NCBI GenBank assembly: GCA_044228265.1
Contig: JBGAVC010000037.1
Span: 5,726-37,725 of the forward strand
Direction of reading: 5' to 3'
DNA length: 32,000 nt
From: Pyrinomonadaceae bacterium
GTDB taxonomy: Bacteria; Acidobacteriota; Blastocatellia; Pyrinomonadales; Pyrinomonadaceae
The notes beneath the pieces are model-generated. The model did not search any database and was not told the DNA's origin. It saw nothing but the letters and a program-made list of their open reading frames with translations. Made by a program: the position numbers and the translations under genes. Positions 3,832 to 29,316 of the stretch are shown here, piece after piece (positions within the stretch are counted from its first letter, which is position 1; the number at the start of each line of letters is the position of its first letter).

Positions 3832-4233
3832 ATGGAAATAGAGGAATTTAAACGAAAAATGAAGATGAAACTCATTCAACTCTCTATCTTCACGATGTTT
3901 TTGATCGTGGTAGCTTTCTCGCAAACAAAGGTCTCGGCTCAGGCCGATCAGATCGTCGGCGGATATGGGGATATTTCCGTTAAATCAAAAGAGGCACGCC
4001 GTGCCGCAGATGTCGCGGTCCATAGCCGATCCGCTAGGACCGGGAAAAAGATCACGCTCGTTCGTATCAAAAAAGCTGAACAGCAGGTCGTCGCTGGGCT
4101 CAATTATCGCATCTGCATGTCCGTCCGCGAAGGTCGCCGCAAACCCTACCTTGTGACCGCTGTGGTCTACCAGAACCTCAAGAACAAACGCAGTCTGAGC
4201 AAATGGAAAAAAGGCGATTGCACGGATCTCTAG
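3832..4233 (+). CDS. Secreted cystatin-like protein (putative cysteine-protease inhibitor fold)
   Basis: Signal peptide KLIQLSIFTMFLIVVAFSQTKVSAQA. The mature part has the cystatin layout: N-terminal IVGG, a helix, the literal QVVAG hairpin motif (EQQVVAGLNYRI), then VVYQNL...SKW. The start could instead be the ATG at 3859 or 3865 (MKMKL). Confidence 0.6.
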   Translation: MEIEEFKRKMKMKLIQLSIFTMFLIVVAFSQTKVSAQADQIVGGYGDISVKSKEARRAADVAVHSRSARTGKKITLVRIKKAEQQVVAGLNYRICMSVREGRRKPYLVTAVVYQNLKNKRSLSKWKKGDCTDL

Positions 4234-4274
4234 GATTCGTAAGCCAAAGAAAGACGGTTTATTGACGCCCGGAT

Positions 4275-4454
4275 CTACAGCTTTAGCCGCTCATATTGGG
4301 CAAAGAGCTTTGTGATCTCGGCATTGATCGCTTGCTTTGCGGCAAGGCTTGTCTCCTTGTCACGGCGTTTGACCAACTCTTCAATTTGGTGCTGCAGGAC
4401 CTCGATCTTAGTCTCGGGTTTTCTGCTTTTGCTGATTTGATATTTATCGTCCAT
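4275..4454 (-). CDS. Small (59 aa) lysine/glutamate-rich helical hypothetical protein
   Basis: Below the ORF-track length cutoff. Reverse complement from ATG 4454 reads MDDKYQISKSRKPETKIEVLQHQIEELVKRRDKETSLAAKQAINAEITKLFAQYERLKL, with stop TAG at 4277..4275. Its composition is far more protein-like than the overlapping listed ORFs 4283..4522(-) and 4296..4496(+). No clear RBS or promoter. Confidence 0.3.
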   Translation of the reverse strand: MDDKYQISKSRKPETKIEVLQHQIEELVKRRDKETSLAAKQAINAEITKLFAQYERLKL

Positions 4455-4546
4455 GAGTCTGCGCTCGGGGTTGACAAAAGTGTTTTCTGCCTTTGAGTAC
4501 GATGATATACTGGTCGGCGCATCTTACATAAAAAGGAGGCAGACGT

Positions 4547-4750
4547 ATGTCAGCAACATCTGCGGCGCAAGCCGGGCGTAAATTCATTGACTGCAGCGAA
4601 TTTCCGAGCGACAGCAACTGCACGTTGAAAATTTCGGGCAAGGAAGACGAGGTCATTCCGATCGCTGCCTACCATGCCGCGACCGTGCATGGCCACGAAG
4701 ACACACCGGAAATGCGTGAAAAACTCCGTTCATTCTTAAAGGACGAATAA
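4547..4750 (+). CDS. DUF1059 family small protein
   Basis: 67 aa. FIDCSEFPSDSNCTLKISGKEDEVIPIAAYHAATVHGHEDTPEMREKLRSFLKDE matches my memory of DUF1059. Strong RBS AAAGGAGG ending 7 nt before the ATG. Confidence 0.8.
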   Translation: MSATSAAQAGRKFIDCSEFPSDSNCTLKISGKEDEVIPIAAYHAATVHGHEDTPEMREKLRSFLKDE

Positions 4751-4769
4751 AGCGAAGGGCCGCAAAAGT

Positions 4770-7700
4770 TCAGGCGGCTTTTTCGATGCCGTAGCGGGCT
4801 AGTTTGAGGTAGAGACCGCGACGGGTGAGTCCGAGTTCGTTTGCGACACGTGAGATGTTCCAGTTGTGGCGGGTGAGAGCGGCTTTGATCATCTGCAGCT
4901 CGAGTTCCGAGACGGCGTCTTCAAGGGTTCCGCCCGGCGTCAGGTTGGTGAACGGAGATACCACGCCGTCGTAGGACGCTATCGGACGGACGTTGGACCC
5001 AGGATCGAAGGTGGTCAACGGCTTTGCACTACGTTTGAGCTCGGGCGACAAATGCTCAGGCGTGACGACCTCGTTATCGACCGCACGGGCAACTATCCTT
5101 TGTATCTCATTGCATAACTGCCGGACGTTCCCTTCCCAGTTACACACCATAAGCAGGTCGACCGTCTGCGGCGTAAATGTAATATCGCGTTTGCCGAAAC
5201 GCGCCGAGTAGTGGTTGACGTAGTAATTGACGATCGGCGGTATCTCCGAACGCCGTTCCCGCAGCGGAGGCACACGCAACCGGATCACGTTCAGCCTGTA
5301 GTAGAGATCTTCGCGAAAGGAGCCTTCGGCAACCTTTTCCTCAAGAGGCATGTTGGTGGCGGCGATGATACGAACATCGACCTTCATGGGACGCTTTTCG
5401 CCAAGCGGCTGGATCTCGCCTTCCTGAAGAAAGCGGAGCAGTTTGGGCTGCACATCGAGCGGCAGGTCGCCGACTTCATCCAGAAACAGCGTACCGCCGT
5501 CGGCAGTCCGGATAGTACCCGGCGAATCCTGGACGGCGCCGGTGAACGCGCCTTTTCGGTAACCGAACAGATGCCCTTCAGCCAGCTCTTTTGGCACCGC
5601 CGTGCAGTTGAACGGGACAAAGATCCTGTCCTTTCGGTTCGAGAGTGTGTGAATGGCTCGCGAAACGAGCTCTTTTCCGGTTCCCGATTCGCCCGTGACG
5701 AGCACCGTCACATCGGACGAGCGTATCTTATAGACTTCCTCAACCAGCGCCGTCATCGCCGGCGACGAGTGAATAAAGCCGGGCATTAGGCTGTTGGACG
5801 TGTACGGTCCGGAATCCGATTCCGCGGGTCGCGATTTGTCCTTCTCACGAAGGGCGACCAGGTCCATTCCCATTTCAACGACCCGCAGCAGCGGCTGCAG
5901 CGAACTTTCATCCGACAGGACGGCGCCGGATTGCGGGCTTATGATCAAGACGGCTGGCGAACCCGCACTGCTTCGGAGCGGAATGACGGCGACGTTTTTT
6001 GTCCTGGCAAAGGTCTTTTCCTCGCCTTTCTGCATCGCTTCGTTGAGCTTTCTTACAAGTTCGTTGCTCTCCTGCGGCGAGTATCCGTGAGTAACGAACG
6101 GATAAAGCCGCTTCTGTTCGCCGTGCTCGGCGACGATCACACGACGAGCGTTACTCTCCTGCTGCAGCACTGCAACTAGCTCCCGAAACAATAGTTCTCG
6201 TGATGCAGTGGCTTCGGCCAGCCGTACGGTAAGAAGCTGGAAGACTACCGAATTTGTCCTGCGAGTCGGCTGCTCGCCGGACGGCTCCGACATTTTTGCC
6301 AGGCGGGCCCGAGCGCTTTCGACCGCGCTGGCAAGCAGCTTGTTTCCGAGCTTATTGAAAACGTCGGAGGCCGTGGCGAGATGATTCGCGGCCCTCGCGG
6401 ACTGCCGTCGGTCAAGATTGGACCCGAGCAAAAGGTGAATCAGTGCCGTGTGATACAGGTCCTCGGCTGCTTCAAAGATCGTCAATGCACGATTAAAGTG
6501 GTGGATCGCAAGTTCAGTGTCCTGTTCTTCAAGGGCCGCCAAGCCCCGGATACGCTGAATGTTGCCTAGCACGAAGAAGTCCGACGTCGCGTCGGTCTCC
6601 TCGATGGCCCTCAGTGCGGCGTCGCATTCCTCGACGTCGTTTCTCAACAGCGAACTTTCGGCCAGAACGAGGCCCGCCATGTTCGCGTAATGCTTATCGC
6701 CGACCTCATGCGCTAGGGCTATGGTCTCTTTTGCCTTCTCGGCCGCCGCATTGAGGTCACCACGTGCAAGGTTCAGGCGCGCGATGTTTCGCATTGCCTG
6801 AACCTTGTACCATTGGTTCTTTCGTTCGGTGGCACATTCGACCGCCTTTTTGAGCAGCGATTCGGCTTCGTCCCATTCACCGCGGAGGATCATCAATTCT
6901 CCCAGCGAATCATATATGCCTGCCAGGTGGGTATAATTTCCTCTCAAAGCGATCTCGAGCGCACGCCTGATCATGGCTTCGGCTCTTATCCAGTCGCCGA
7001 TCAAAGCCAGATTGATCCCGAGATTGTTATAGGCTATGACTGAATTGAGAGCGTGTTCCGTACGGTCAAAGAACTCGATCGATTTCTCGAGGCACTCGAT
7101 ACCTTCCTGCGGGCGGCGAAGAAACCAATAAGCGCCGGACATATCGGTATAGAGCTTGCCCAGCATGAAAGGCGCCGAGTTGTCACCGATGATCTTGATA
7201 CCCAGTTGAAAACTCTCGAGAGCCTTATCGCTGTTTCCCTCCTGATGCAGGCTGTTCGCGATCTCACGATACGCTTCTGCCATCCCCAGCCAATTGCCCT
7301 GTTCGCGGAAATTGTCGAGCGCCTTTTCGGCAAAATCCCTGCAGATCGGATATTCGTTGAGTCTTCGGTAAACGCGGGCGAGTCCGGTATTGATAAAACC
7401 CGCCAGATGCGGCAGGTTGTATTCTGACGCTTTCTTTAAGGTGTCTTTGAGCAACGTGATCGCCTTGGGCTGATCGGTCTGGTTATTGTAGGCAATGGCG
7501 AGCTGGGTAATGACCTTGACCTGTGTCTCGGTCGAGAGTTCAGCCAGATTCTCCTCATCCTCGTAGGGTTTTAGTATCTCCAGGGATTCATCGTAGCGAC
7601 CAAGAGTCTCGAGAGTGAAAGCAAGCAGCCGCTTGAGGTGTGCGAGATTATCCGGCGTATGCTCGTAGTCATTGATAGTTTCCGTCAAGATACGCTCGGA

Positions 7701-20806: not shown

Positions 20807-23101
20807 ATGAAAATCATCACTTTGTCTCTGTTCATCTTTTTTGTATCAATGGCTGTCTTTGCTCAAAACGATGAGATCAATGTCATTCCAAAACCTGCGC
20901 GAGTCAAACGCCCAGAAGGTTCATTCAAGCTAAGTAGTACAACTGTCATCTTTGTTCCGAACAAGGCTTATCTAAAGAATGCGGTGATTCTCAATGACCT
21001 CTTGCAAACCAACTTTTCGATACGACTCAAGGTTACGTCACAACGCAGAAAGACAAACGTGATCCTTATTGGAGATTCTCCTTTTTCTGAAAACGGAAGA
21101 TATCCGCGTCCAGAGTCGTATTCTCTGACGGTCGAGCCGAATAGCATCAATATTTGGGGAAATGATCGAGGGCAATTTTATGGACTACAAACGCTCGCGC
21201 AACTCATGACGTCATCAAAAAAAGGCGTGGTAGAGATACCATTTACGGCAATTGCAGACTGGCCGAGGTTCCCCTACCGCGGGATGCACCTCGATGTCAG
21301 TCGGCACTTCTTTCCGGTCGAGTTCGTCAAAAAGTACATCGACCTGATGTCGCAGTACAAGTTCAACTACTTCCATTGGCACCTGACGGATGACCAGGGC
21401 TGGCGGATCGAGATCAAGAAATATCCGAAGTTGACCGAGATCGGTTCGAAACGGTCCGAATCCCATCTCGGCCCTTATACGCCCACGTTTAAGGGCGACG
21501 GCGTGCCGGTCGAGGGGTTTTATACACAGGAGCAGATCAAGGACGTCGTTGCCTATGCCAAGGCAAGATACATCACTGTGATACCAGAGATCGAGCTGCC
21601 GGGCCACTCGTCCGCGGCGCTCGCGGCTTATCCGGAGCTTGGCTGCAAGGCGGACTACAAGTACGAGGTAAAAAAAACGTGGGGCATTTTTAAGGAAGTC
21701 TATTGCCCTACGGAAAGGACGTTCGGCTTTCTCGAAGACGTTCTGAGCGAGGTCATCGGCCTTTTCCCCGATTCGCCGTACATCCACGTCGGCGGCGACG
21801 AGGTTTTGAAGGACATGTGGAAAGAGTCGCCCGAGGTCAAAGATTTGATGGCGCGAGAGAACCTCAAGGACGAGCACGAGGTCCAAAGCTATTTCATCCG
21901 CCGGATGGAGAAGTTCATCAACTCGAAAGGCAAAAAGATCATCGGCTGGGACGAGATACTCGAGGGCGGGCTCGCGCCGAATGCGACGGTCATGTCCTGG
22001 CGCGGGACCAAGGGCGGTATCGAGGCGGCCAAAGCGCATCACGACGTGATCATGACGCCGACCGACTACGCTTACTTTGATTTCTCTCAGGGAGACCCGG
22101 CGACCGAGCCTCTCAACATCGGCAATTACCTGACACTCGACAAGGTGTACAGCTTTGATCCGGTGCCAAAGGACCTCTCGCCCGAGGATGCAAAGTACAT
22201 AATCGGCGGCCAGGGCAACGTCTGGACCGAATATATGCAGACGCCCGAAAATGTCGAGTATATGGCTCTCCCACGCATGCTCGCCATGGCCGAGGACATC
22301 TGGTCGACACCCGAAAACAAGAATTTCGCCGACTTTTCGCAGCGGCTTTCGGTGCAATTGTCGCGGCTCGATAAACGAGGGATAAACTTCCGTATTCCGG
22401 AACCCGCGGGCCTCGCGAACCGCGTACTCGGGCACGACGAGGCGGTGGATGTCGAACTTAAGACGGCGATATCCGGTGCGAGCATCCATTACACCACCGA
22501 CGGCACAACGCCTACGTCCGCCTCGCCCGTCATACCGGAAAAGCTCGAGATCAGACCCAACGGCGGAATCCGCACGGACCTCAAGACCGTTATCGTACTG
22601 CCCTCGGGGCGGGCAAGTTCGGTCTATACCGCCACTTTCCTGCGCATGCCGTGGCTCGTAGCCGAGCCCGATCTCAAGGACAAACGTCAGGGTGCGACCT
22701 TTGGACTCGTCGCGTGGCGGCCGGACGGCGTCGCTGAACCGCTCGTGACCAGCGGCGAGACCAAAACTCTGGGTTTTCAGCAATTCGCGAAAATCACTGA
22801 TCTCAAGCGCCCCTTTGCGGTGACTTTCAACGGTTACATTAACGCACCGGTTGATGCGATCTATGAGTTTCAGGTCGAATCGACGTACTCGGCCGCCGTC
22901 GAGCTCGACGGCCTGAAACTGATCGACGAAACCGGTACTGCCGAGCGAAAGACCCGTTCAAATGTCGTCCCCTTGCGGGCCGGCCTGCATAAGATAAGCC
23001 TGCGATACGCCAACAGCAGCGGCGATCCTTTCTGGCGGGTCCGCTGGGCGATAAAAGGCCAGAACTGGCGAAATCTCGGCGGCGGGGAGTTGATCCATTA
23101 G
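20807..23101 (+). CDS. GH20 beta-N-acetylhexosaminidase with C-terminal CHB_HEX_C-like and PA14-like domains
   Basis: 764 aa, with signal peptide. GH20 motifs RGMHLDVSRHFF, HWHLTDDQGWRIE, HVGGDEV. IHYTTDGTTPTS is a chitobiase C-terminal type motif. NGYINAPVDAIYEFQVES...LHKISLRYANS is PA14-like. Confidence 0.85.
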   Translation: MKIITLSLFIFFVSMAVFAQNDEINVIPKPARVKRPEGSFKLSSTTVIFVPNKAYLKNAVILNDLLQTNFSIRLKVTSQRRKTNVILIGDSPFSENGRYPRPESYSLTVEPNSINIWGNDRGQFYGLQTLAQLMTSSKKGVVEIPFTAIADWPRFPYRGMHLDVSRHFFPVEFVKKYIDLMSQYKFNYFHWHLTDDQGWRIEIKKYPKLTEIGSKRSESHLGPYTPTFKGDGVPVEGFYTQEQIKDVVAYAKARYITVIPEIELPGHSSAALAAYPELGCKADYKYEVKKTWGIFKEVYCPTERTFGFLEDVLSEVIGLFPDSPYIHVGGDEVLKDMWKESPEVKDLMARENLKDEHEVQSYFIRRMEKFINSKGKKIIGWDEILEGGLAPNATVMSWRGTKGGIEAAKAHHDVIMTPTDYAYFDFSQGDPATEPLNIGNYLTLDKVYSFDPVPKDLSPEDAKYIIGGQGNVWTEYMQTPENVEYMALPRMLAMAEDIWSTPENKNFADFSQRLSVQLSRLDKRGINFRIPEPAGLANRVLGHDEAVDVELKTAISGASIHYTTDGTTPTSASPVIPEKLEIRPNGGIRTDLKTVIVLPSGRASSVYTATFLRMPWLVAEPDLKDKRQGATFGLVAWRPDGVAEPLVTSGETKTLGFQQFAKITDLKRPFAVTFNGYINAPVDAIYEFQVESTYSAAVELDGLKLIDETGTAERKTRSNVVPLRAGLHKISLRYANSSGDPFWRVRWAIKGQNWRNLGGGELIH

Positions 23102-23121
23102 AAATATGATCGGACAGCTGA

Positions 23122-23141
23122 CCTCCGACTGAAGTCGGAGG
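23122..23141. repeat. Perfect 8-bp stem / 4-nt loop hairpin between GH20 and GH29 genes
   Basis: CCTCCGAC tgaa GTCGGAGG. No U-tract follows, so it is not a classical intrinsic terminator. It may be a REP-like unit or an RNA stability element. Confidence 0.4.
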
Positions 23142-23179
23142 CAATTGAGTAAACCTCAGGCAACGGGGATCGCTTAAGA

Positions 23180-24619
23180 ATGAGCAAGAATAGTTTTGAC
23201 ACAGTTTTGTGTGTGTTCATTGCCATTTTGCTCCTGATATCCTCCACTGTTTACGGGCAAACAAGGACCCCGCCACCACGGCCTGTTCTCCCAGTACCAA
23301 CCGCTGCTCAACTTGCCTGGCAAAAGCTCGAATATTACGCCTTCATCCACTTCGGGATGAACACGTTCGGCGAACACGAATGGGGCGAGGGCCGAGAACC
23401 GGCAACGGATTTTTACCCTACCGCTTTCGACGCTCGGCAATGGGCCCGAGTCGTGAGAGACGCCGGAATGAAGGGCATCATCATTACCGCAAAGCACCAC
23501 GATGGATTTTGCCTGTGGCCGTCGGCTACGACCGAGTATTCGGTCAAGAACTCCAGGTGGCGGGACGGCAAAGGCGACGTACTGCGGGAACTGTCCGACG
23601 CGTGCAAAGAGTACGGCCTTAAATTCGGCATTTACATCTCGCCGTGGGACCGCAACCATCCGCTTTACGGGACCCCGCGTTACAACCGCGTTTACAAGGA
23701 CCAGTGGCGCGAACTGCTCTCGAATTATGGTGAGGTATTCGAATCGTGGCTCGACGGTGCTAACGACGGAAAAAAGCGGATGGTCTATGATTTCGACGGG
23801 TTTTACTCGACGATCCTCGGCATCCAACCCAGCACAATGATCTTCAGCGACGCGGGGCCTGGCATTCGCTGGGTCGGCAACGAACGCGGGATCGCCGGCG
23901 AAACAAACTGGTCGATGCGTGACAACGAGGGTACGTTTCCGGGATTTGCCGATACAGCAGCACTAAACCGCGGCGACGAGAATGGCGACAAATGGATCCC
24001 GGCCGAGTGCGATGTGTCAGTTAGGCTGGGCTGGTTCTATCACGCCGCGGAAGACAAAAAGCTCAAGTCCGTCACCGATTTGATGGACATTTATCTCGGA
24101 TCGGTCGGCCGCAACTGCAATCTTTTGCTCAACATCGGCGTCGACCGCCGCGGCCTTGTCAATGAGAACGACATCGCACGGCTGATGGAGTTCAAAACCG
24201 CGCGTGAAAAGGCGTTTGCCGTAAACCTAGCAAAAGGAAAAATTACAGCATCAAATGTCAGAGGCCGTGACCGCCGTTTTTCGGCCGAGAACGTCCTCGA
24301 CGGAAATTTCGACACCTATTGGGCGACTGATGACAATGTCACAAACGCCTCGATAACGCTCGACTTCGGCCGGGAAACTGATATTGATACGGTAACGCTG
24401 CAGGAAAATATCGCGCTCGGCCAACGGGTCAAAAGGTTTTCGGTCGAGGCATGGGATGGATCGCAATTTGTGACGGTCTCGCGGCAGACTACCATTGGTT
24501 ACAAACGGATAGTTCGATTTCCAAAAACAAGGACCAGGAAGGTCCGAGTTGTGATCGAAGACGCGCGGGCATGTCCGGCCATATCGACGGTTGAAATATA
24601 CAGTTCCGGAGGGAATTAA
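23180..24619 (+). CDS. GH29 alpha-L-fucosidase with C-terminal F5/8 type C (discoidin) domain
   Basis: 479 aa, with signal peptide. GH29 core AKHHDGFCLWPS and YISPWDRN. The C-terminus NVLDGNFDTYWATDD...VRVVIE is discoidin-like. Confidence 0.85.
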   Translation: MSKNSFDTVLCVFIAILLLISSTVYGQTRTPPPRPVLPVPTAAQLAWQKLEYYAFIHFGMNTFGEHEWGEGREPATDFYPTAFDARQWARVVRDAGMKGIIITAKHHDGFCLWPSATTEYSVKNSRWRDGKGDVLRELSDACKEYGLKFGIYISPWDRNHPLYGTPRYNRVYKDQWRELLSNYGEVFESWLDGANDGKKRMVYDFDGFYSTILGIQPSTMIFSDAGPGIRWVGNERGIAGETNWSMRDNEGTFPGFADTAALNRGDENGDKWIPAECDVSVRLGWFYHAAEDKKLKSVTDLMDIYLGSVGRNCNLLLNIGVDRRGLVNENDIARLMEFKTAREKAFAVNLAKGKITASNVRGRDRRFSAENVLDGNFDTYWATDDNVTNASITLDFGRETDIDTVTLQENIALGQRVKRFSVEAWDGSQFVTVSRQTTIGYKRIVRFPKTRTRKVRVVIEDARACPAISTVEIYSSGGN

Positions 24620-24714
24620 CCACAGATGAACACAGATAAACACCGATCAGAAGTCAGAAATCCCAAGTCAAAAGCCAATAGATCGGCTTTCTTTGCGTCT
24701 CTGCGTCTCTGCGG
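24620..24714. repeat. About 95-nt imperfect palindromic (REP/MITE-like) element spanning the GH29-GH92 junction
   Basis: Left arm CCACAGATGAACACAGATAAACACCGATC (24620..24648). Right arm GATCGGCTTTCTTTGCGTCTCTGCGTCTCTGCGG (24681..24714). Inner CCGATC/GATCGG pair perfectly. Outer CCACAGA..CACAGA versus TCTGCG..TCTGCGG pair imperfectly. The GH92 ATG (24626) lies inside the left arm. Confidence 0.5.
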
Positions 24715-27700
24715 TTCGATTCTTTTTATAGCAATTGCAGCCGCAGCCCAAACGCGCGACTTCACGCGTTGGGTAAATCCCTTCATCGGCACCGGCGGTC
24801 ACGGGCATACATTTCCCGGTGCGACGATGCCATTCGGTATGGTCCAACTATCGCCCGACACACGCACCGACAACTGGGACGGCTCATCCGGCTATCACTA
24901 CTCCGACGACATCATCTACGGCTTTTCACACACTCACCTGAGCGGCACGGACATACCGGATTATTGCGATATTTTGTTCATGCCGACGGTTGGTCCTATT
25001 GAAGAATTTAAGGCTCCCTGGGAGACCGGCCTGGAATGGTACGGATCCAAATTCTCGCACGCAAACGAGAAAGCCGAGCCGGGTTATTATTCGGTAAAGC
25101 TCGACAATGGCGACGTTAAGGTCGAGTTGACAAGCACAAATCGTGTTGGGCTTCATCGATATACATACCCAGGTGCCGGAACGAACAATATAGTCTTAGA
25201 CCTAAAATGGCGTGATAAATTGCTGGATTCCACGATAAAGATAGTGGGAAATAACCGGGTCGAAGGGTATCGACGATCAAGCTCTTGGGCAAAAGATCAA
25301 GTTATTTATTTTAGTGCTGAGTTTTCAAGACCCTTTGCTTATGCCCTGTCCCAGGATGGTTCTGCTGACTCGTTACGAGGAGTTCCTCGTTTAAAAGAAC
25401 ATAAGTCTTTTAGCACGGAAAACTATCAACGAGTTTTTCAGTTTAATTTAGCTGATGGAGAACAGGTCTTGCTAAAGGTCGCACTTTCACCTGTCTCGAT
25501 CGAAGGCGCTCGCAAAAACCTCGCCGCAGAGCTTCCAGGCTGGGATTTTGATAAGGTCCGGGCGGACGCAAAAACGGCCTGGAACAAGGATCTGTCCAAG
25601 ATCGAGGTCTCGGGCGGGACCGAAGCTCAGACGACGACATTTTACACGGCGCTTTATCACACGATGATCCAGCCGAATATCTTCAACGATGTCGACGGCA
25701 ATTACCGCGGGATGGATGGCAAGGTGCATTCCCTATGGAACGCGGACGCCCTCGTCCGCAATGAGGGCGGAGCCCGAAACAGCCCTTACGCCGGAGGCAC
25801 CGGCGTTGGCGGACGAGGGCGTCCGCGTTCCGGCCAGTACACCGTCTTCTCGCTCTGGGACACATTCCGCGCGGCGCACCCGCTTTATACGATCATTGAT
25901 CAGAAACGCACCATCGATTTTATCAACACCTTTATCCGCCAATACGAACAAGGCGGGCGGCTGCCGGTTTGGGAGCTGGCGGGGAACGAGACCGACTGCA
26001 TGATCGGCTACCACGCCGTCTCGGTCATCGCCGATGCGATGGCGAAGGGGATAAATGGCTTTGATTACGAAAAAGCATACGCCGCCGCCAAACACAGCGC
26101 GATGCTCGACCACTTCGGCCTCGCCGGCTACAAAAAACGCGGCTACATATCGATGGAGGACGAGAACGAATCGGTTTCGCGCACGCTCGAATACGCCTAC
26201 GATGACTGGTGCATCGCCGAGATGGCAAAGATCATGGGCAAGCGATACGAAGATTGGCTGCTCACGACTAACAAGAAACTCGCCAGTCCTCTGCCAGAAC
26301 AGCAGTACGCCGCCGACTATCAGAAATACTCGGAGCGAGGCCGCTACTTCGAAAACCTCTTCGACCCTGCGACCGGCTTCATGCGGCCGAAAAAGAACGG
26401 CGGCTTTGTCGAGCCATTTGCTCCGAACGAGGTGACGTTCGGCTTTACCGAGGGCAATTCGTGGCAGTACACGTTCTTTGTGCCGCAGGATGTGACGCGG
26501 CTGATGGAACTCGAGGGAGGCCGCGATAAGTTCGTCGCAAAGCTCGATGAGTTATTCACGACGACACAGAAACTCGGCGGCCGCGAGCAGGCCGACCTGA
26601 CGGGGCTGATCGGACAATACGCTCACGGCAACGAGCCCTCGCATCACATTGCTTACCTGTACGACTACGCCGGCGAGCCGTGGAAGACGCAAAAATACGT
26701 CCGAAAGATCATGGACGAGTTCTACAAGCCCGCGCCCGACGGCCTGATCGGCAACGAGGACTGCGGCCAGATGTCGGCTTGGTACATCCTTGCGCGGCTG
26801 GCGTCTACGAGGTGACGCCGGGCTCAGGCGTTTATGCGTTCGGAGCTCCTTTGTTTCCGGAGATCAAATTCAAGCTCGAGAACGGTAAGCAATTTGTGGT
26901 TCGTGCCCGGAACGTGTCCGATAAGAACATCTACATTGCGGAAGCGAAACTTAACGGCAAACCTTACAAAAAAAGCGTTCATTACTTATGAAGACATGAT
27001 GAGCGGCGCCGTACTCGAATTCACGATGACGGACACGCCCGTAAGAACAGCGTTCACGGAGTTTCCTGTTTCGTCGATGAACGCTGATTCTGTCTCGGTC
27101 CCGTTGATCGCGGGCGACCGTACGATCAGGAACGCCGTTAATGTCAACATGTCAACGGTCACTCCTAACGCGAGGATCTATTACGACCGACGGCAGCGAT
27201 CCGTCCACCGAAATCGACGGCATTCACCGCTCCATTCACGATCGACCGGACAACGACGGTAAAGGCGATCGCGATCGACTCGAAGGGGAATTCAAGCCAG
27301 CCGGTCACGGCCAGATTCGTAAAGCCGCCAAACGACTGGACCGTCAAGGTCGTCTCCGGCTACAGCCGGCAGTACACCGGCGGCGGCGACAATGCGATCG
27401 TCGACGGTATTCGCGGGACGGTCAATTTTGCGAGCGGCGAGTGGCAGGGCATACAGGGCAAACCGTACGAGGCGATCGTCGATCTGCAGCGGCCGACCGA
27501 CATCAGCGAACTCGGAGGCAGCTTTTGCAGGTCGCCTCGCCCTGGATCTGGATGCCGGACCGTGTCGAGTTTGAGGTGTCGAGGACGGCGTGACGTTTAC
27601 CAAGGCCGCCGAGATCAAGCCCGGCTTTCCGCAGACCGAGATGACGCCGACGATCAGAGAATACACGCAAAAGATCTCCCCGACCAAAGCTCGCTACGTT

Positions 27701-27796
27701 CGAATGCGTGCCTTCAATTTCGGCAAGATCCCGTCGTGGCACCCCGGAGCGGGCGGCAACCCGTGGATATTTGTGGATGAGATCATCATTAAGTAG
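24626..27796 (+). pseudogene. GH92 alpha-mannosidase with C-terminal CHB_HEX_C-like and discoidin-like domains, broken by about six frameshifts in its 3' third (intact ORF ends at 26815)
   Basis: GH92 motifs VNPFIGTGGHGHTFPGATMPFGMVQLSPDT, GFSHTHLSGT, YTVFSLWDTFRAAHP, GNEPSHHIAYLY, GNEDCGQMSAWYIL. After about 26790 the homologous-looking translation continues only by switching frames:
- AAGVYEVTPGSGVYAFGAPLF...KLNGKPYKK
- AFITYEDMMSGAVLEFTM...ARIYY
- TTDGSDPST
- KSTAFTAPFTIDRTTTVKAIAIDSKGNSSQPVTARF...GGSF
- LQVASPWIWMPDRVEFEVS
- EDGVTFTKAAEIK...WIFVDEIIIK, then stop at 27796. Confidence 0.75.
25737..25831. repeat. 95-nt REPIN-like palindromic element inserted in frame inside the GH92 coding sequence
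   Basis: Perfect 23-nt inverted arms GGAACGCGGACGCCCTCGTCCGC (25737..25759) and GCGGACGAGGGCGTCCGCGTTCC (25809..25831), separated by 49 nt. Each arm is itself a 7-bp hairpin (GCGGACG-CCCT-CGTCCGC). The element encodes an atypical G/R/A-rich segment, SLWNADALVRNEGGARNSPYAGGTGVGGRGRPRSGQ, between the conserved GMDGKVH and YTVFSLWDT blocks. Confidence 0.7.
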
Positions 27797-27803
27797 AGAA
27801 ATA

Positions 27804-27857
27804 GTGTCCGCGGCCCGGCGGCCAAGCACCGTGTCCGCAGCCCGACTGTTAAGGAGG
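27804..27857. repeat. REP-like repeat units upstream of the RAYT-like gene
   Basis: GTGTCCGCGGCCCG (27804..27817) and GTGTCCGCAGCCCGACTGTTAAGGAGG (27831..27857). The second is the near-exact inverse complement of the composite unit downstream of the gene (28480..28522). Confidence 0.6.
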
Positions 27858-27929
27858 CTTTCCCGTTAGAACTGTTCGACTCAAGGTCATTTGAGGGAAC
27901 CTGTTAAAACCGCTCAACTCAAGACCGAC

Positions 27930-28458
27930 ATGAAACGCGACTACATAGAGTTTCAAGAGAGATCCGAGCCTCGCGGTTATTTTTATTTCGATCCGTACAT
28001 ATGGAACCTGGCTGCATGGGGACCGACGAGGTGCGGTAAATCGTCGCTCGTATAACACGGTGGGCATGTCCAAAATGTCGCCAAACAGAAATTTAGAATC
28101 GAGCGACAGAACTAACCTAAAGAACCCGCCAGTGATCCTCGACGCGAAACGCCGAACAGCGGTCGAAAAAGCAATTCGCGAGGTCTGCAAATTTCGCGGC
28201 ATCTGGCTGATCGCAATCAACGTTCGAACGAATCATGTTCACATCGTCATCGGCTCAAGTGGGCGTCCTGAACCGATAATGAATGCCTTTAAAGCTTACG
28301 CAACGAGGAGGCTCAGGCTGGAAGGACTGATCGGCGCCGATACCAAGGTTTGGTCGAGGCATGGAAGTACCAGATATCTATGGACCGAGGAGCATATCGC
28401 GTTGGCTGTGGATTACGTTGTGAACGGTCAGGGCGACGAGTTGCCGAGGTTTGATTAG
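27930..28458 (+). mobile_element. HUH Y1 transposase-like gene (IS200/RAYT-like), interrupted by one frameshift in a T5 run
   Basis: ATG 27930 gives MKRDYIEFQERSEPRGYF. After T-run 27980..27984 the sensible reading continues in the +1 frame: ISIRTYGTWLHGDRRGAVNRRSYNTVGMSKMSPN...AINVRTNHVHIVIGSSG (HUH motif)...VWSRHGSTRYLWTEE (candidate catalytic Tyr)...stop at 28458. The listed ORF 28060..28458 is only the 3' part. Confidence 0.65.
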
Positions 28459-28479
28459 GTCGAATCTGGGTTGGCGGCG

Positions 28480-28522
28480 CCCTCCCTAACGGTCGGGCTG
28501 CCCTCCCTAACGGTGCGGACAC
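28480..28522. repeat. Tandem REP-like units downstream of the RAYT-like gene
   Basis: CCCTCCCTAACGGTCGGGCTG (28480..28500) directly followed by CCCTCCCTAACGGTGCGGACAC (28501..28522). Together they reconstitute CCTCCCTAACGGTCGGGCTGCGGACAC. This is the reverse complement of 27831..27857 apart from two mismatches. Confidence 0.6.
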
Positions 28523-28542
28523 GATCGGGGCGATCGAATATG

Positions 28543-29316
28543 TTACTCGGGTTTAACCTCGCCAATCCTCGCGAGGCCACGTGCGGCCTGCGAGAATTCC
28601 GAAGGTATCAGGACGATCGCCGTTGTGTGGTTCTCGACACCGATCTCGGAGAGCATCTGCATACGGCGAAGCTCGAGCGCGATGGGGCTCTCTTCCATCT
28701 TTTTGGCGCCTTGGGTCAGCTTGATCGAGGCTTCGAGTTCGGCTTCGGCCTTGACGATGCGGGCACGTTTTTCGCGGATCGCCTCGGCCTCGCGGGCCAT
28801 CGCACGCTGCATCGATTCGGGAATTTCGACGTCTTTCATCTCGACCATTTCGATCTTGATGCCCCACGGCTCGGTCGTTGCACCGACCATTGTCTGCAGA
28901 GTCTGATTGATCTTCTCACGATCTCTCAGCACTTCGTCGAGCGATGTCTGTCCGATGATGTTACGCAGAGCGGTGACCGAAAACTGGTAAACGGCCTGGC
29001 CGTAGTTGGCCACCTCAAGGATCGATTTGGAAGCGTCGACGATGCGGAACCACAGAACGGCGTTGACCTTGATGGTGACGCTGTCTTTGGTGATCGTCTC
29101 CTGCTGTTCGAGGTTGACGGTCGTCGTGCGGATGTCGACCTTTTGCTGACGGTCGATGATAGGGATGAGGTAGTAGATACCCGGACCCTTGATGCCGATG
29201 TAACGCCCCAGGCGAAAAACGACGGCCCGCTGGTACTCCTGTGCAATGCGGATACCGGAAAGCAATATAACGACGAAAATGACAAGGATCAACAAAAGCG
29301 GAGGAATGGCTTGCAT
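28543..29316 (-). CDS. SPFH/band-7 (stomatin-like) membrane protein
   Basis: 257 aa. N-terminal TM segment PPLLLILVIFVVILLSGI, then QEYQRAVVFRLGRY...GPGIYYLIPIIDR...TKDSVTIKVNAVLWFRIVD...RNIIGQTSLDEVL...PWGIKIEMVEMKDVEIPESMQRAMA, which is a typical stomatin/PHB core. Confidence 0.9.
   Translation of the reverse strand: MQAIPPLLLILVIFVVILLSGIRIAQEYQRAVVFRLGRYIGIKGPGIYYLIPIIDRQQKVDIRTTTVNLEQQETITKDSVTIKVNAVLWFRIVDASKSILEVANYGQAVYQFSVTALRNIIGQTSLDEVLRDREKINQTLQTMVGATTEPWGIKIEMVEMKDVEIPESMQRAMAREAEAIREKRARIVKAEAELEASIKLTQGAKKMEESPIALELRRMQMLSEIGVENHTTAIVLIPSEFSQAARGLARIGEVKPE

Follow-up and report, generated by a model that had tools for sequence, protein, structure and literature searches.

The stretch analysed here, referred to throughout as the window, comprises 32,000 nucleotides from a Pyrinomonadaceae bacterium (GenBank assembly GCA_044228265.1, contig JBGAVC010000037.1, positions 5,726 to 37,725) and carries a GH92 alpha-mannosidase gene on its forward strand (24626-27796). 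The gene spans ~1056 codons and, by Pfam, ends in C-terminal CHB_HEX_C and F5/8 type C modules. Its family assignment rests on the open reading frame (ORF) at 24626-26815, which matches Glyco_hydro_92N (E 4.6e-80) and the Glyco_hydro_92 catalytic domain (E 4.6e-148), and the protein aligns to the solved structure 6f8z with 557 bits. Inside this ORF, at 25737-25831, lies a 95-nt palindromic element that is translated as part of the enzyme and that we interpret below as a probable doublet of repetitive extragenic palindromic (REP) sequences, or REPIN. A second gene, encoding a Y1 HUH protein that is IS200-like and resembles the REP-associated tyrosine transposases (RAYTs), lies downstream on the same strand (27930-28458). 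Loci and proteins retrieved from databases for comparison are designated by L and P numbers, respectively.

Structure and insertion status of the element

An inverted-repeat search places the two arms of the element at 25737-25759 (GGAACGCGGACGCCCTCGTCCGC) and 25809-25831 (GCGGACGAGGGCGTCCGCGTTCC); as originally predicted, they are 23 nt long, 100% complementary, and bracket 49 nt. The left arm begins with an unpaired 5' tag, GGAAC, followed by the hairpin GCGGACG-CCCT-CGTCCGC (25742-25759), and the right arm is its exact reverse complement, with the hairpin at 25809-25826 and the tag reading GTTCC. The prediction that each arm is itself a small hairpin is borne out by folding as single-stranded DNA (ssDNA): each alone forms a 7-bp stem with a 4-nt loop (-9.2 and -9.4 kcal/mol), and 0 of 200 shuffles fold as well. 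In the same folds the spacer (25760-25808, forward strand like the arms) forms two small inner hairpins, GGGCGGAGCCC (25765-25775) and CGCCGGAGGCACCGGCG (25789-25805), which are closed in the full-length element by the 23-bp stem (-47.9 kcal/mol as ssDNA, z = -9.3). Folded as RNA in a 121-nt context, the element reaches -76.2 kcal/mol (z = -7.2). A search of the 32-kb window that tolerated up to 3 mismatches found no other copy of the arm (0 in 100 dinucleotide-preserving shuffles). No target-site duplication borders the element, the flanks being CCCTAT on the left and GGCCAG on the right, and none is present in the orthologous copies of L120, L121, and L204-L207, where the flanks also differ. 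An Rfam scan of 24000-29000 (E <= 1) returned no match at the element and only a chance snoRNA match elsewhere. The UGA-hairpin-GAAA arrangement of the spacer, which by eye resembles a hammerhead core, fails as such at the essential C3, U4, and G5. This arrangement and the inner hairpin GCCGGAGGNACCGGC are kept in the spacers of two insert types, a and b, defined below; GCCGGAGGNACCGGC is retained in five of six aligned orthologous copies, and the sequence of the first spacer hairpin differs in L204.

Translation proceeds through the element without a stop codon, as ...KVH SLWNADALVRNEGGARNSPYAGGTGVGGRGRPRSGQ YTVFSLWDT..., in line with the prediction that the element leaves the frame unbroken. 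Its length of 95 nt is not a multiple of three, and the frame is kept because the full codon segment between the conserved His368 and Tyr405 (25730-25837) measures 108 nt, that is, 36 codons (S369-Q404) of which the element fills all but 13 nt. Four of the six frames of the element are open. Solved GH92 structures (6f8z, 7zgm, and 2wvx) align to either side of the segment, with ~29 query residues in between left without a counterpart. The outgroup sample consists of 80 fetched metagenome GH92 loci, of which 57 distant ones (47-58% identity) could be parsed and only four belong to the clade, among the matches listed. All 57 have 25-27 residues from a PNxxxD anchor to YTVFSLWDT, equivalent to 6-8 residues between His and Tyr, and the longest inverted repeat at their loop is 4-7 nt, which is the chance level. 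The original prediction held that some 30 G/R/A-rich residues had been added between the blocks GMDGKVH and YTVFSLWDT, given as standing 8-10 residues apart; the excess of ~29 residues (36 versus 6-8) agrees with this, and the measured spacing in canonical GH92 is 6-8. Judged by these alignments to orthologues and structures, the 95-nt unit is an insertion relative to canonical GH92, and SLWNADA...RPRSGQ is the segment that contains it. Unrelated lineages have no segment of similar length, and the segment-bearing orthologues that were read as DNA all have inverted repeats. An AlphaFold2 model of the 729-aa ORF (48-sequence alignment) has a mean predicted local distance difference test score of 54.5, too low to place the insert on the surface.

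Downstream of the element, comparison with orthologue P0002 by tblastn reveals six 1-nt frameshifts in the GH92 gene between ~26795 and 27583, with zero net change (frames 2>1>2>3>1>3>2). These are a -1 shift at ~26795, +1 shifts in an A7 run (26968-26974), at ~27186, and at ~27211, and -1 shifts at ~27525 and ~27582, all given on the forward strand. Conservation in the shifted frames is the same as in the remaining protein. A metagenome contig that is 96.5% identical (L209) is intact at the three sites that it covers, two in GH92 and the T5 run of the Y1 gene, and the other large ORFs of the window with a Pfam family give full-length domain matches. The indels in the GH92 and Y1 genes represent either local sequence error or very recent decay. 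Uninterrupted orthologous ORFs of 1031-1049 aa (P0015, P0018, P0023, and P0027) contain the same element, so its in-frame residence in a live gene is real. Genomes with the element include GCA_031405985.1, GCA_046154245.1, and GCA_016716365.1.

Occupation of the loop across GH92 orthologues

The closest 120 database proteins (66-77% identical, ~1005-1108 aa) were compared at the His-Tyr loop; the few named orthologues among them carry source labels that are mostly Pyrinomonadaceae, Chloracidobacterium, or Acidobacteria/Acidobacteriota. The loop is filled in 118 of the 120, with 15-74 residues and a median of 36. Only P0103 (TAPKDTH) and P0118, the protein of L203 (TASKDTN), have a 7-residue loop, which follows the outgroup-like pattern TAxKDTx. 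With a range of 7-74 aa, the H368-Y405 loop is the most length-variable segment of the family, and the two loops next in variability resemble ordinary protein. The inserted peptides fall into nine types: a (NADALVRNEG..GGRGRPRS), b (SADTPVRMSAASARK..GDADKSVR), c (LQKPAREQGRNT..ALANARASA), d (NPKSKIQNPKS), e (SPGFSRP..PPKGGTP), f (RRDAETQR), g (HPSFVRRG), h (HSWQAYNAG), and i (SSPHVSKG). Composite inserts also occur, combining c+h, d+f, c+g, and g+i.

At the DNA level, an inverted repeat is present in all 12 filled loops that were read, the window's included. The window, L120, L121, L205, L206, and L207 have the same arms, CGGAACGCGGACGCCxTCGTCCGCAAT, which are 93-100% complementary. The arms of L204 are of a subtype, GGAGTGCGGACACTCCTGTCCGCAT; its spacer is homologous, and changes in its long stem compensate one another, so that pairing persists through 5-6 double changes. 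Elsewhere the loop is held by other palindromes: GGAGC-GCGGGCTGCCAGCCCGC paired with GCAGGCTAGCAGCCTGC-GCTCC in L201, 30-nt type f arms in L122, 32-nt type c arms in L123, nested repeats in L155, and 25-nt type e arms in L208; the loop of L203 is empty. Four families with GGAG or GGAA tags start 6-7 nt past the His codon. With palindromic elements of roughly nine families filling the loop in ~98% of orthologues, these sequences indicate a recurrent landing site and not a one-off insertion.

Several comparisons bear on whether the occupants were inherited or replaced. Identity between the window and L120 host genes is 75.6% at the protein level, 72.6% at the nucleotide level, and 50% at four-fold degenerate sites, while 89 of the 95 element positions and all 46 arm positions are identical. 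The combination of six copies with near-identical arms and ~50% four-fold-site identity in the host genes argues against neutral vertical drift. The window GH92 is closer to L201 (80.5% aa), which holds another family, and to L202 (79.6%), which holds type i, than to L120 with its type a insert, and insert types are interleaved along the neighbour-joining gene tree. Filled orthologues have common derived junction residues, H-[NQS]-[ILV]...[SG]-[DE]-[QEH]-Y. The two proteins with short loops, P0103 and P0118, are sisters near the base of the outgroup-rooted neighbour-joining tree, with weak bootstrap support (12 of 30 replicates).

Repeats are also apparent at the start of the GH92 ORF, where the first ~30 codons (24621-24716) consist of short direct repeats, CACAGATGAA/CACAGATAAA and ATCAGAAGTCAGAA/ATCCCAAGTCAAAA, together with GCGTCTCTGCGTCTCTGCGG, the reverse of the type f arm in the L122 loop. 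This region encodes ...RNPKSK...SAFFASLRLCG and runs into the signal peptide, and the true GH92 start may be further downstream. The gene itself is the last of a co-oriented group (20807-27796) that also includes a GH20 hexosaminidase and a GH29-like fucosidase with an F5/8 module. The group looks like an N-glycan-degrading set and is kept in L206 and in L201, where it is interspersed with a GH109 gene and a Y1 gene.

Dispersed hairpins and Y1 genes

Exact matches to the 18-nt hairpin of the arm number at least 131, at no fewer than 119 loci, in a collection with one genome for each species; chance would yield a few tens, as estimated from pattern length and database size. Among the matches listed, the loci are concentrated in Acidobacteriota (Terriglobia, Bryobacterales, and Pyrinomonadaceae), Verrucomicrobiota, Calditrichota, and Armatimonadota. 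The 5' tags of the 131 listed copies are non-random: GTGGG (24), (G)TAGGG (17), GGAGC (13), GTGGC (8), GTAGG (7), and GGAAC (7) predominate. Approximately 100 of the copies bear a G[GT][AG]-type tag, with (G)TAGG(G) on 24 and GTGGG or GTGGC on 32. Inverted doublets 40-130 nt apart are found in L004, L036, L059, L075, L102, and L112, and in some cases several loci come from one assembly (L033, L049, and L120; L004 and L036; L016 and L017). Other loci in assemblies of Pyrinomonadaceae and of further Acidobacteriota also have the exact 23-nt arm, three of them (L033, L049, and L120) in a single assembly. The GGAAC...AAT variant appears in L033, L049, L054, L064, L094, L108, and L112, both as singletons and as doublets with differing spacers. 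On this sequence evidence, the arm hairpin is a dispersed repeat belonging to a broad tagged REP family.

Copies of the hairpin are found between and within genes. Intergenic copies adjoin genes at L120:3598 and L202:10704, and Pfam-confirmed in-frame copies lie in ThiC (L054), a xanthine-dehydrogenase-like protein (L039), and a CobB-like protein (L022). Sorting the 131 copies by stop-to-stop ORFs yielded these three clear intragenic cases alongside spurious long ORFs in GC-rich DNA, and a protein-database search with the four open frames concatenated returned 5 short domain-less ORFs and missed known carriers, making it too insensitive for counting. The ThiC gene of L054 (~4000-5300; Pyrinomonadaceae metagenome-assembled genome (MAG) JBATDM010000108.1) has two in-frame segments derived from repeats: a type c segment, QKPAGEQGRNTQ, and one lone hairpin of type a, RNADALVRSSERSDRSS. 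Colonisation of genes by in-frame REPs thus seems to be general in Pyrinomonadaceae and not specific to GH92. The 18-nt hairpin is also present in remote lower-GC genomes, namely L001 and L031 (Neisseriaceae bacterium B1, CP183313.1), L026, L030, L063, and L077 (Clostridia/Ruminococcus MAGs), and L068 and L117 (Bacteroidales MAGs). These copies bear REP-like tags (GTAGGG, GGAGC, GAAC, or GGGGAC), and a second inverted hairpin lies nearby in L001, L031, and L077, diverged in the first two. They could stem from a REP/RAYT system that spread horizontally, from convergence, or from contaminated bins.

The original prediction had noted a RAYT-like HUH gene 2.1 kb downstream of the element. Such a gene is indeed present (27930-28458, +), frameshifted at a T5 run (27980-27984); its ORF at 28060-28458 matches Pfam Y1_Tnp (E 1.3e-7, 32.3 bits, cut-off 23), and the HUH motif is present as HVH in NVRTNHVHIVIG. 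Intact 175-aa versions are found in L209 and in L206, where the copy is 69% identical and occupies a syntenic position, in the order GH92-Y1-DUF1501; the Y1 gene stands directly 3' of GH92 in the window, L206, and L209. In all three it is flanked by type c inverted repeats (GTGTCCG[C/T]AGCCCGACTGT.AAGGAGG...), which in the window are GCAGCCCGACTGTTAAGGAGG on the left (27837-27857, +) and CCTCCCTAACGGTCGGGCTGC on the right (28481-28501, +). The flanking repeats are of the CCTAACGGTCGGGCT type and 21-33 nt long; those of the L206 copy (4157-4794) are 33 nt and carry a GTAG tag. The right flank in the window contains a tandem partial duplication, with CCCTCCCTAACGGT present twice, and L209 has a longer version.

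The repeats that flank Y1 genes recur in GH92 loops. Type c, which flanks the Y1 genes just described, also fills the L123 loop. A different Y1 gene in L201 has perfect 27-nt flanking repeats and GGCTTTAGCC hairpins, and GGCTTTAGCC is the type e motif of the L208 loop. At least two loop-occupying families therefore flank Y1 genes in these genomes, which supports a REP/RAYT origin of the loop sequences. The window further contains a solo REP hairpin, CCTCCGACTGAAGTCGGAGGCAATTGA, at 23120-23148, in the gap that separates the GH20 gene from the fucosidase gene. Its sequence matches exactly the 27-nt repeat flanking the L201 Y1 gene, which is situated just upstream of the fucosidase gene (between the GH109 and fucosidase genes), and may be a footprint of, or a target for, the L201 RAYT.

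Origin and significance of the loop occupants

We consider it likely that the element is a REPIN-type doublet lying in frame in a GH92 loop that was colonised early and whose resident element has since been overwritten or homogenised. By analogy with RAYT and IS200/IS605 systems, Y1 HUH RAYT-like transposases would move or replace such elements as ssDNA at the 5' tag, a route that would leave no target-site duplication. The loop would have been colonised a single time, early in the history of this Pyrinomonadaceae GH92 clade, after which the REPs of each genome would repeatedly have replaced the resident, nested in it, or homogenised it. The loop would tolerate any open, frame-preserving insert, and the resident tag and hairpin would themselves offer a target. 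Selection would then act only on keeping the frame open, and the insert would most likely be selfish or neutral cargo, translated as a disordered loop.

Several observations weigh against this interpretation. Firstly, the 32-kb window has a single copy of the element, and its tag is GGAA(C), not GTAG. Protein look-ups aimed at further sequence of this genome gave no exact match for the aminotransferase and, for the Band_7 protein, only a 2.2-kb contig of a related strain. Secondly, the nearby Y1 gene carries a different repeat from the element; the Y1 proteins score 19.5-23.4 bits against NCBIfam NF047646 (RAYT), for which the cut-off is 80, and also fall below the IS200 cut-off; and a tblastn search of the 209 fetched loci with three Y1 proteins found no Y1 gene flanked by the GGAAC-GCGGACGCCCTCGTCCGC arm. 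Thirdly, the type a and type b copies share spacer homology and position as well as arms, so that single-origin inheritance under strong constraint fits as well as re-insertion. Finally, the window GH92 gene is frameshifted downstream of the element, and therefore the protein may not be made in this strain. Apart from the expected matches, the same tblastn search returned one Y1 gene in L108 with its own, different flanks. The Y1 gene at 27930-28458 appears by sequence to be a distant Y1 lineage. Given the sub-cut-off scores and the lack of a type a-flanked Y1 gene among those loci, this gene is context and not a demonstrated mobiliser of the element; a cognate type a RAYT elsewhere in the genome is possible.

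Host selection offers a different account of the same loop, in which the palindrome or its encoded peptide has been exapted and REP sequences merely supplied the raw material. In the mRNA, the palindrome might form a hairpin at which translation pauses or by which the stability of the transcript is modulated, or the peptide might serve as a flexible basic loop near the substrate-binding WD motif. Such a role would fit the filling of the loop in nearly all orthologues, the complete identity of the window and L120 arms at 50% four-fold-site identity, and the persistence of the long stem and the GCCGGAGGNACCGGC inner hairpin, accompanied in subtype b by compensatory changes. Over more than 12 orthologues, moreover, the peptide of type b is conserved like the remaining protein, and the RNA fold is very stable (-76 kcal/mol). 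The occupants nevertheless come from unrelated families that differ in sequence, length (15-74 aa), and structure, with no peptide or RNA feature common to all, and two members of the clade and every outgroup work with a short loop, of 7 residues in those two members. The same hairpins also occur in unrelated genes and intergenic DNA, Rfam offers no matching family, and the arm conservation is explained equally well if the arms are homogenised against REPs across the genome. We therefore regard exaptation as unlikely. Just as doubtful is the proposal that the H368-Y405 loop is a selected 'socket' requiring a strong palindrome, for which the host exapts whichever REPIN family is active. If true, it would imply a hairpin within the gene, in mRNA or ssDNA, by which translational pausing, the stability of the transcript, or the behaviour of replication is set, or else a basic loop, and it would account for both the ~98% occupancy and the perfectly paired arms amid saturated neutral sites.

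The architecture had originally been described as that of either a REP doublet or a MITE (miniature inverted-repeat transposable element). The hairpin arms, tags, and dispersed copies agree with a REPIN; the second option, in which the 23-nt terminal inverted repeats would mark a deletion derivative of an insertion sequence (IS) with a DDE transposase, is very improbable. Perfect terminal repeats and a total length of 95 nt are what a classical MITE would show, and in-frame fusions by MITEs are known (PMC10969869). However, no orthologous copy has a target-site duplication, each terminal repeat is a tagged self-complementary hairpin, which is a REP signature and unlike a transposase-binding repeat, the hairpin also exists as singletons and as doublets with variable spacers, and no IS with matching ends was seen. 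The palindrome might instead be an artefact of assembly, or have arisen locally where a fragile site underwent template switching or hairpin-primed repair. This would fit the single copy in the window and the downstream 1-nt indels as a possible sign of poor sequence quality, but it is effectively refuted by five genomes or metagenomes, each assembled independently, that have identical arms with a homologous spacer at this site, by the arm sequence at many unrelated loci, and by other loop occupants that match repeats flanking HUH transposase genes.

The REPIN interpretation places the element in a known kind, as intragenic REP dimers encoding 20-30 aa have been described (PMC3733652). GTAG-tagged REPs have stems of 6-9 bp and dimer spacers of 20-100 bp and form several families per genome (Di Nocera 2013, PMC3733652). 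In agreement with published REPIN/RAYT systems (Bertels and Rainey 2011, PMC3116915; PMC3733652), the element has two inverted REP hairpins whose 7-bp stem and 49-nt spacer fall within the published ranges, a short unpaired tag at the 5' end, for which many related hairpins have GTAG or GTGG, singletons as well as dimers, and no target-site duplication, and several REP families coexist with REP-flanked Y1 HUH genes in the same genomes. It departs from them in its GGAAC tag, in the scores of the Y1 genes below the NCBIfam RAYT cut-off, and in that no flanking type a RAYT was found in the loci searched. Listed degenerate forms of the tag are GYAG, GYRG, GTRG, GTMG, and GTGG, and GGAA and GGAG are absent from that list (PMC3733652). 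The Acidobacteriota, to which the Pyrinomonadaceae host belongs, are likewise not among the REP-bearing phyla listed in 2013 (PMC3733652). The original prediction considered in-frame palindromic repeats rare outside Rickettsia; they are not limited to that genus, REPs inside genes having been catalogued in Opitutus, Thauera, Xanthomonas, Rickettsia, and others (PMC3733652). The filling of one GH92 loop by roughly nine families in ~98% of orthologues is also unlike published systems, the only hint and nearest precedent being the different REPs at about the same recB site in two Xanthomonas species (PMC3733652).

Two other groups of elements invite comparison. In the accounts of Ogata 2000 given by PMC3733652 and PMC10969869, Rickettsia palindromic elements (RPEs) are in-frame palindromes at permissive sites in ordinary enzyme genes, as here. 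The same accounts describe them as about 100-150 bp, AT-rich, CGTC-tagged, confined to obligate intracellular Rickettsia, and essentially unique at each site, whereas the present element is a REP doublet of the GTAG-like class from a free-living, GC-rich soil lineage in which many families occupy one site. No sequence relationship to an RPE family was found: host, tag, and sequence differ, and Rfam gave no match at E <= 1. Bacterial MITEs such as Correia, ERIC, and Nezha are similarly short and non-autonomous, have inverted-repeat ends, and are occasionally intragenic with an open frame. They possess transposase-binding repeats, target-site duplications, and an origin in DDE-type ISs, in contrast to the hairpin arms of the element, its lack of a duplication, and the absence of a visible parent IS. 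Judged by its sequence features, then, the element is RPE-like in behaviour and a REP doublet of the GTAG-like superfamily in anatomy, and is neither an RPE nor a MITE. No published case was found in which many REP families fill a single codon-level site in nearly all members of an orthologue set, and a search of the literature on in-frame palindromic repeats in Pyrinomonadaceae returned nothing relevant.

In-frame palindromic colonisation of genes is usually taught as a Rickettsia curiosity. The GH92 loop gives the phenomenon comparative depth in free-living soil Acidobacteria, with ~120 orthologues, an empty ancestral state, roughly nine families, and composite or nested occupants. It thereby constitutes a natural experiment on how REPs and REPINs choose and re-use targets, on how much foreign sequence a glycoside-hydrolase loop tolerates, and on whether inheritance, replacement, or homogenisation governs REPINs at orthologous sites. 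In practical terms, inserts of this kind make the protein families of metagenome catalogues larger and more diverse, and they can mislead the alignment, clustering, and structure prediction of carbohydrate-active enzymes.

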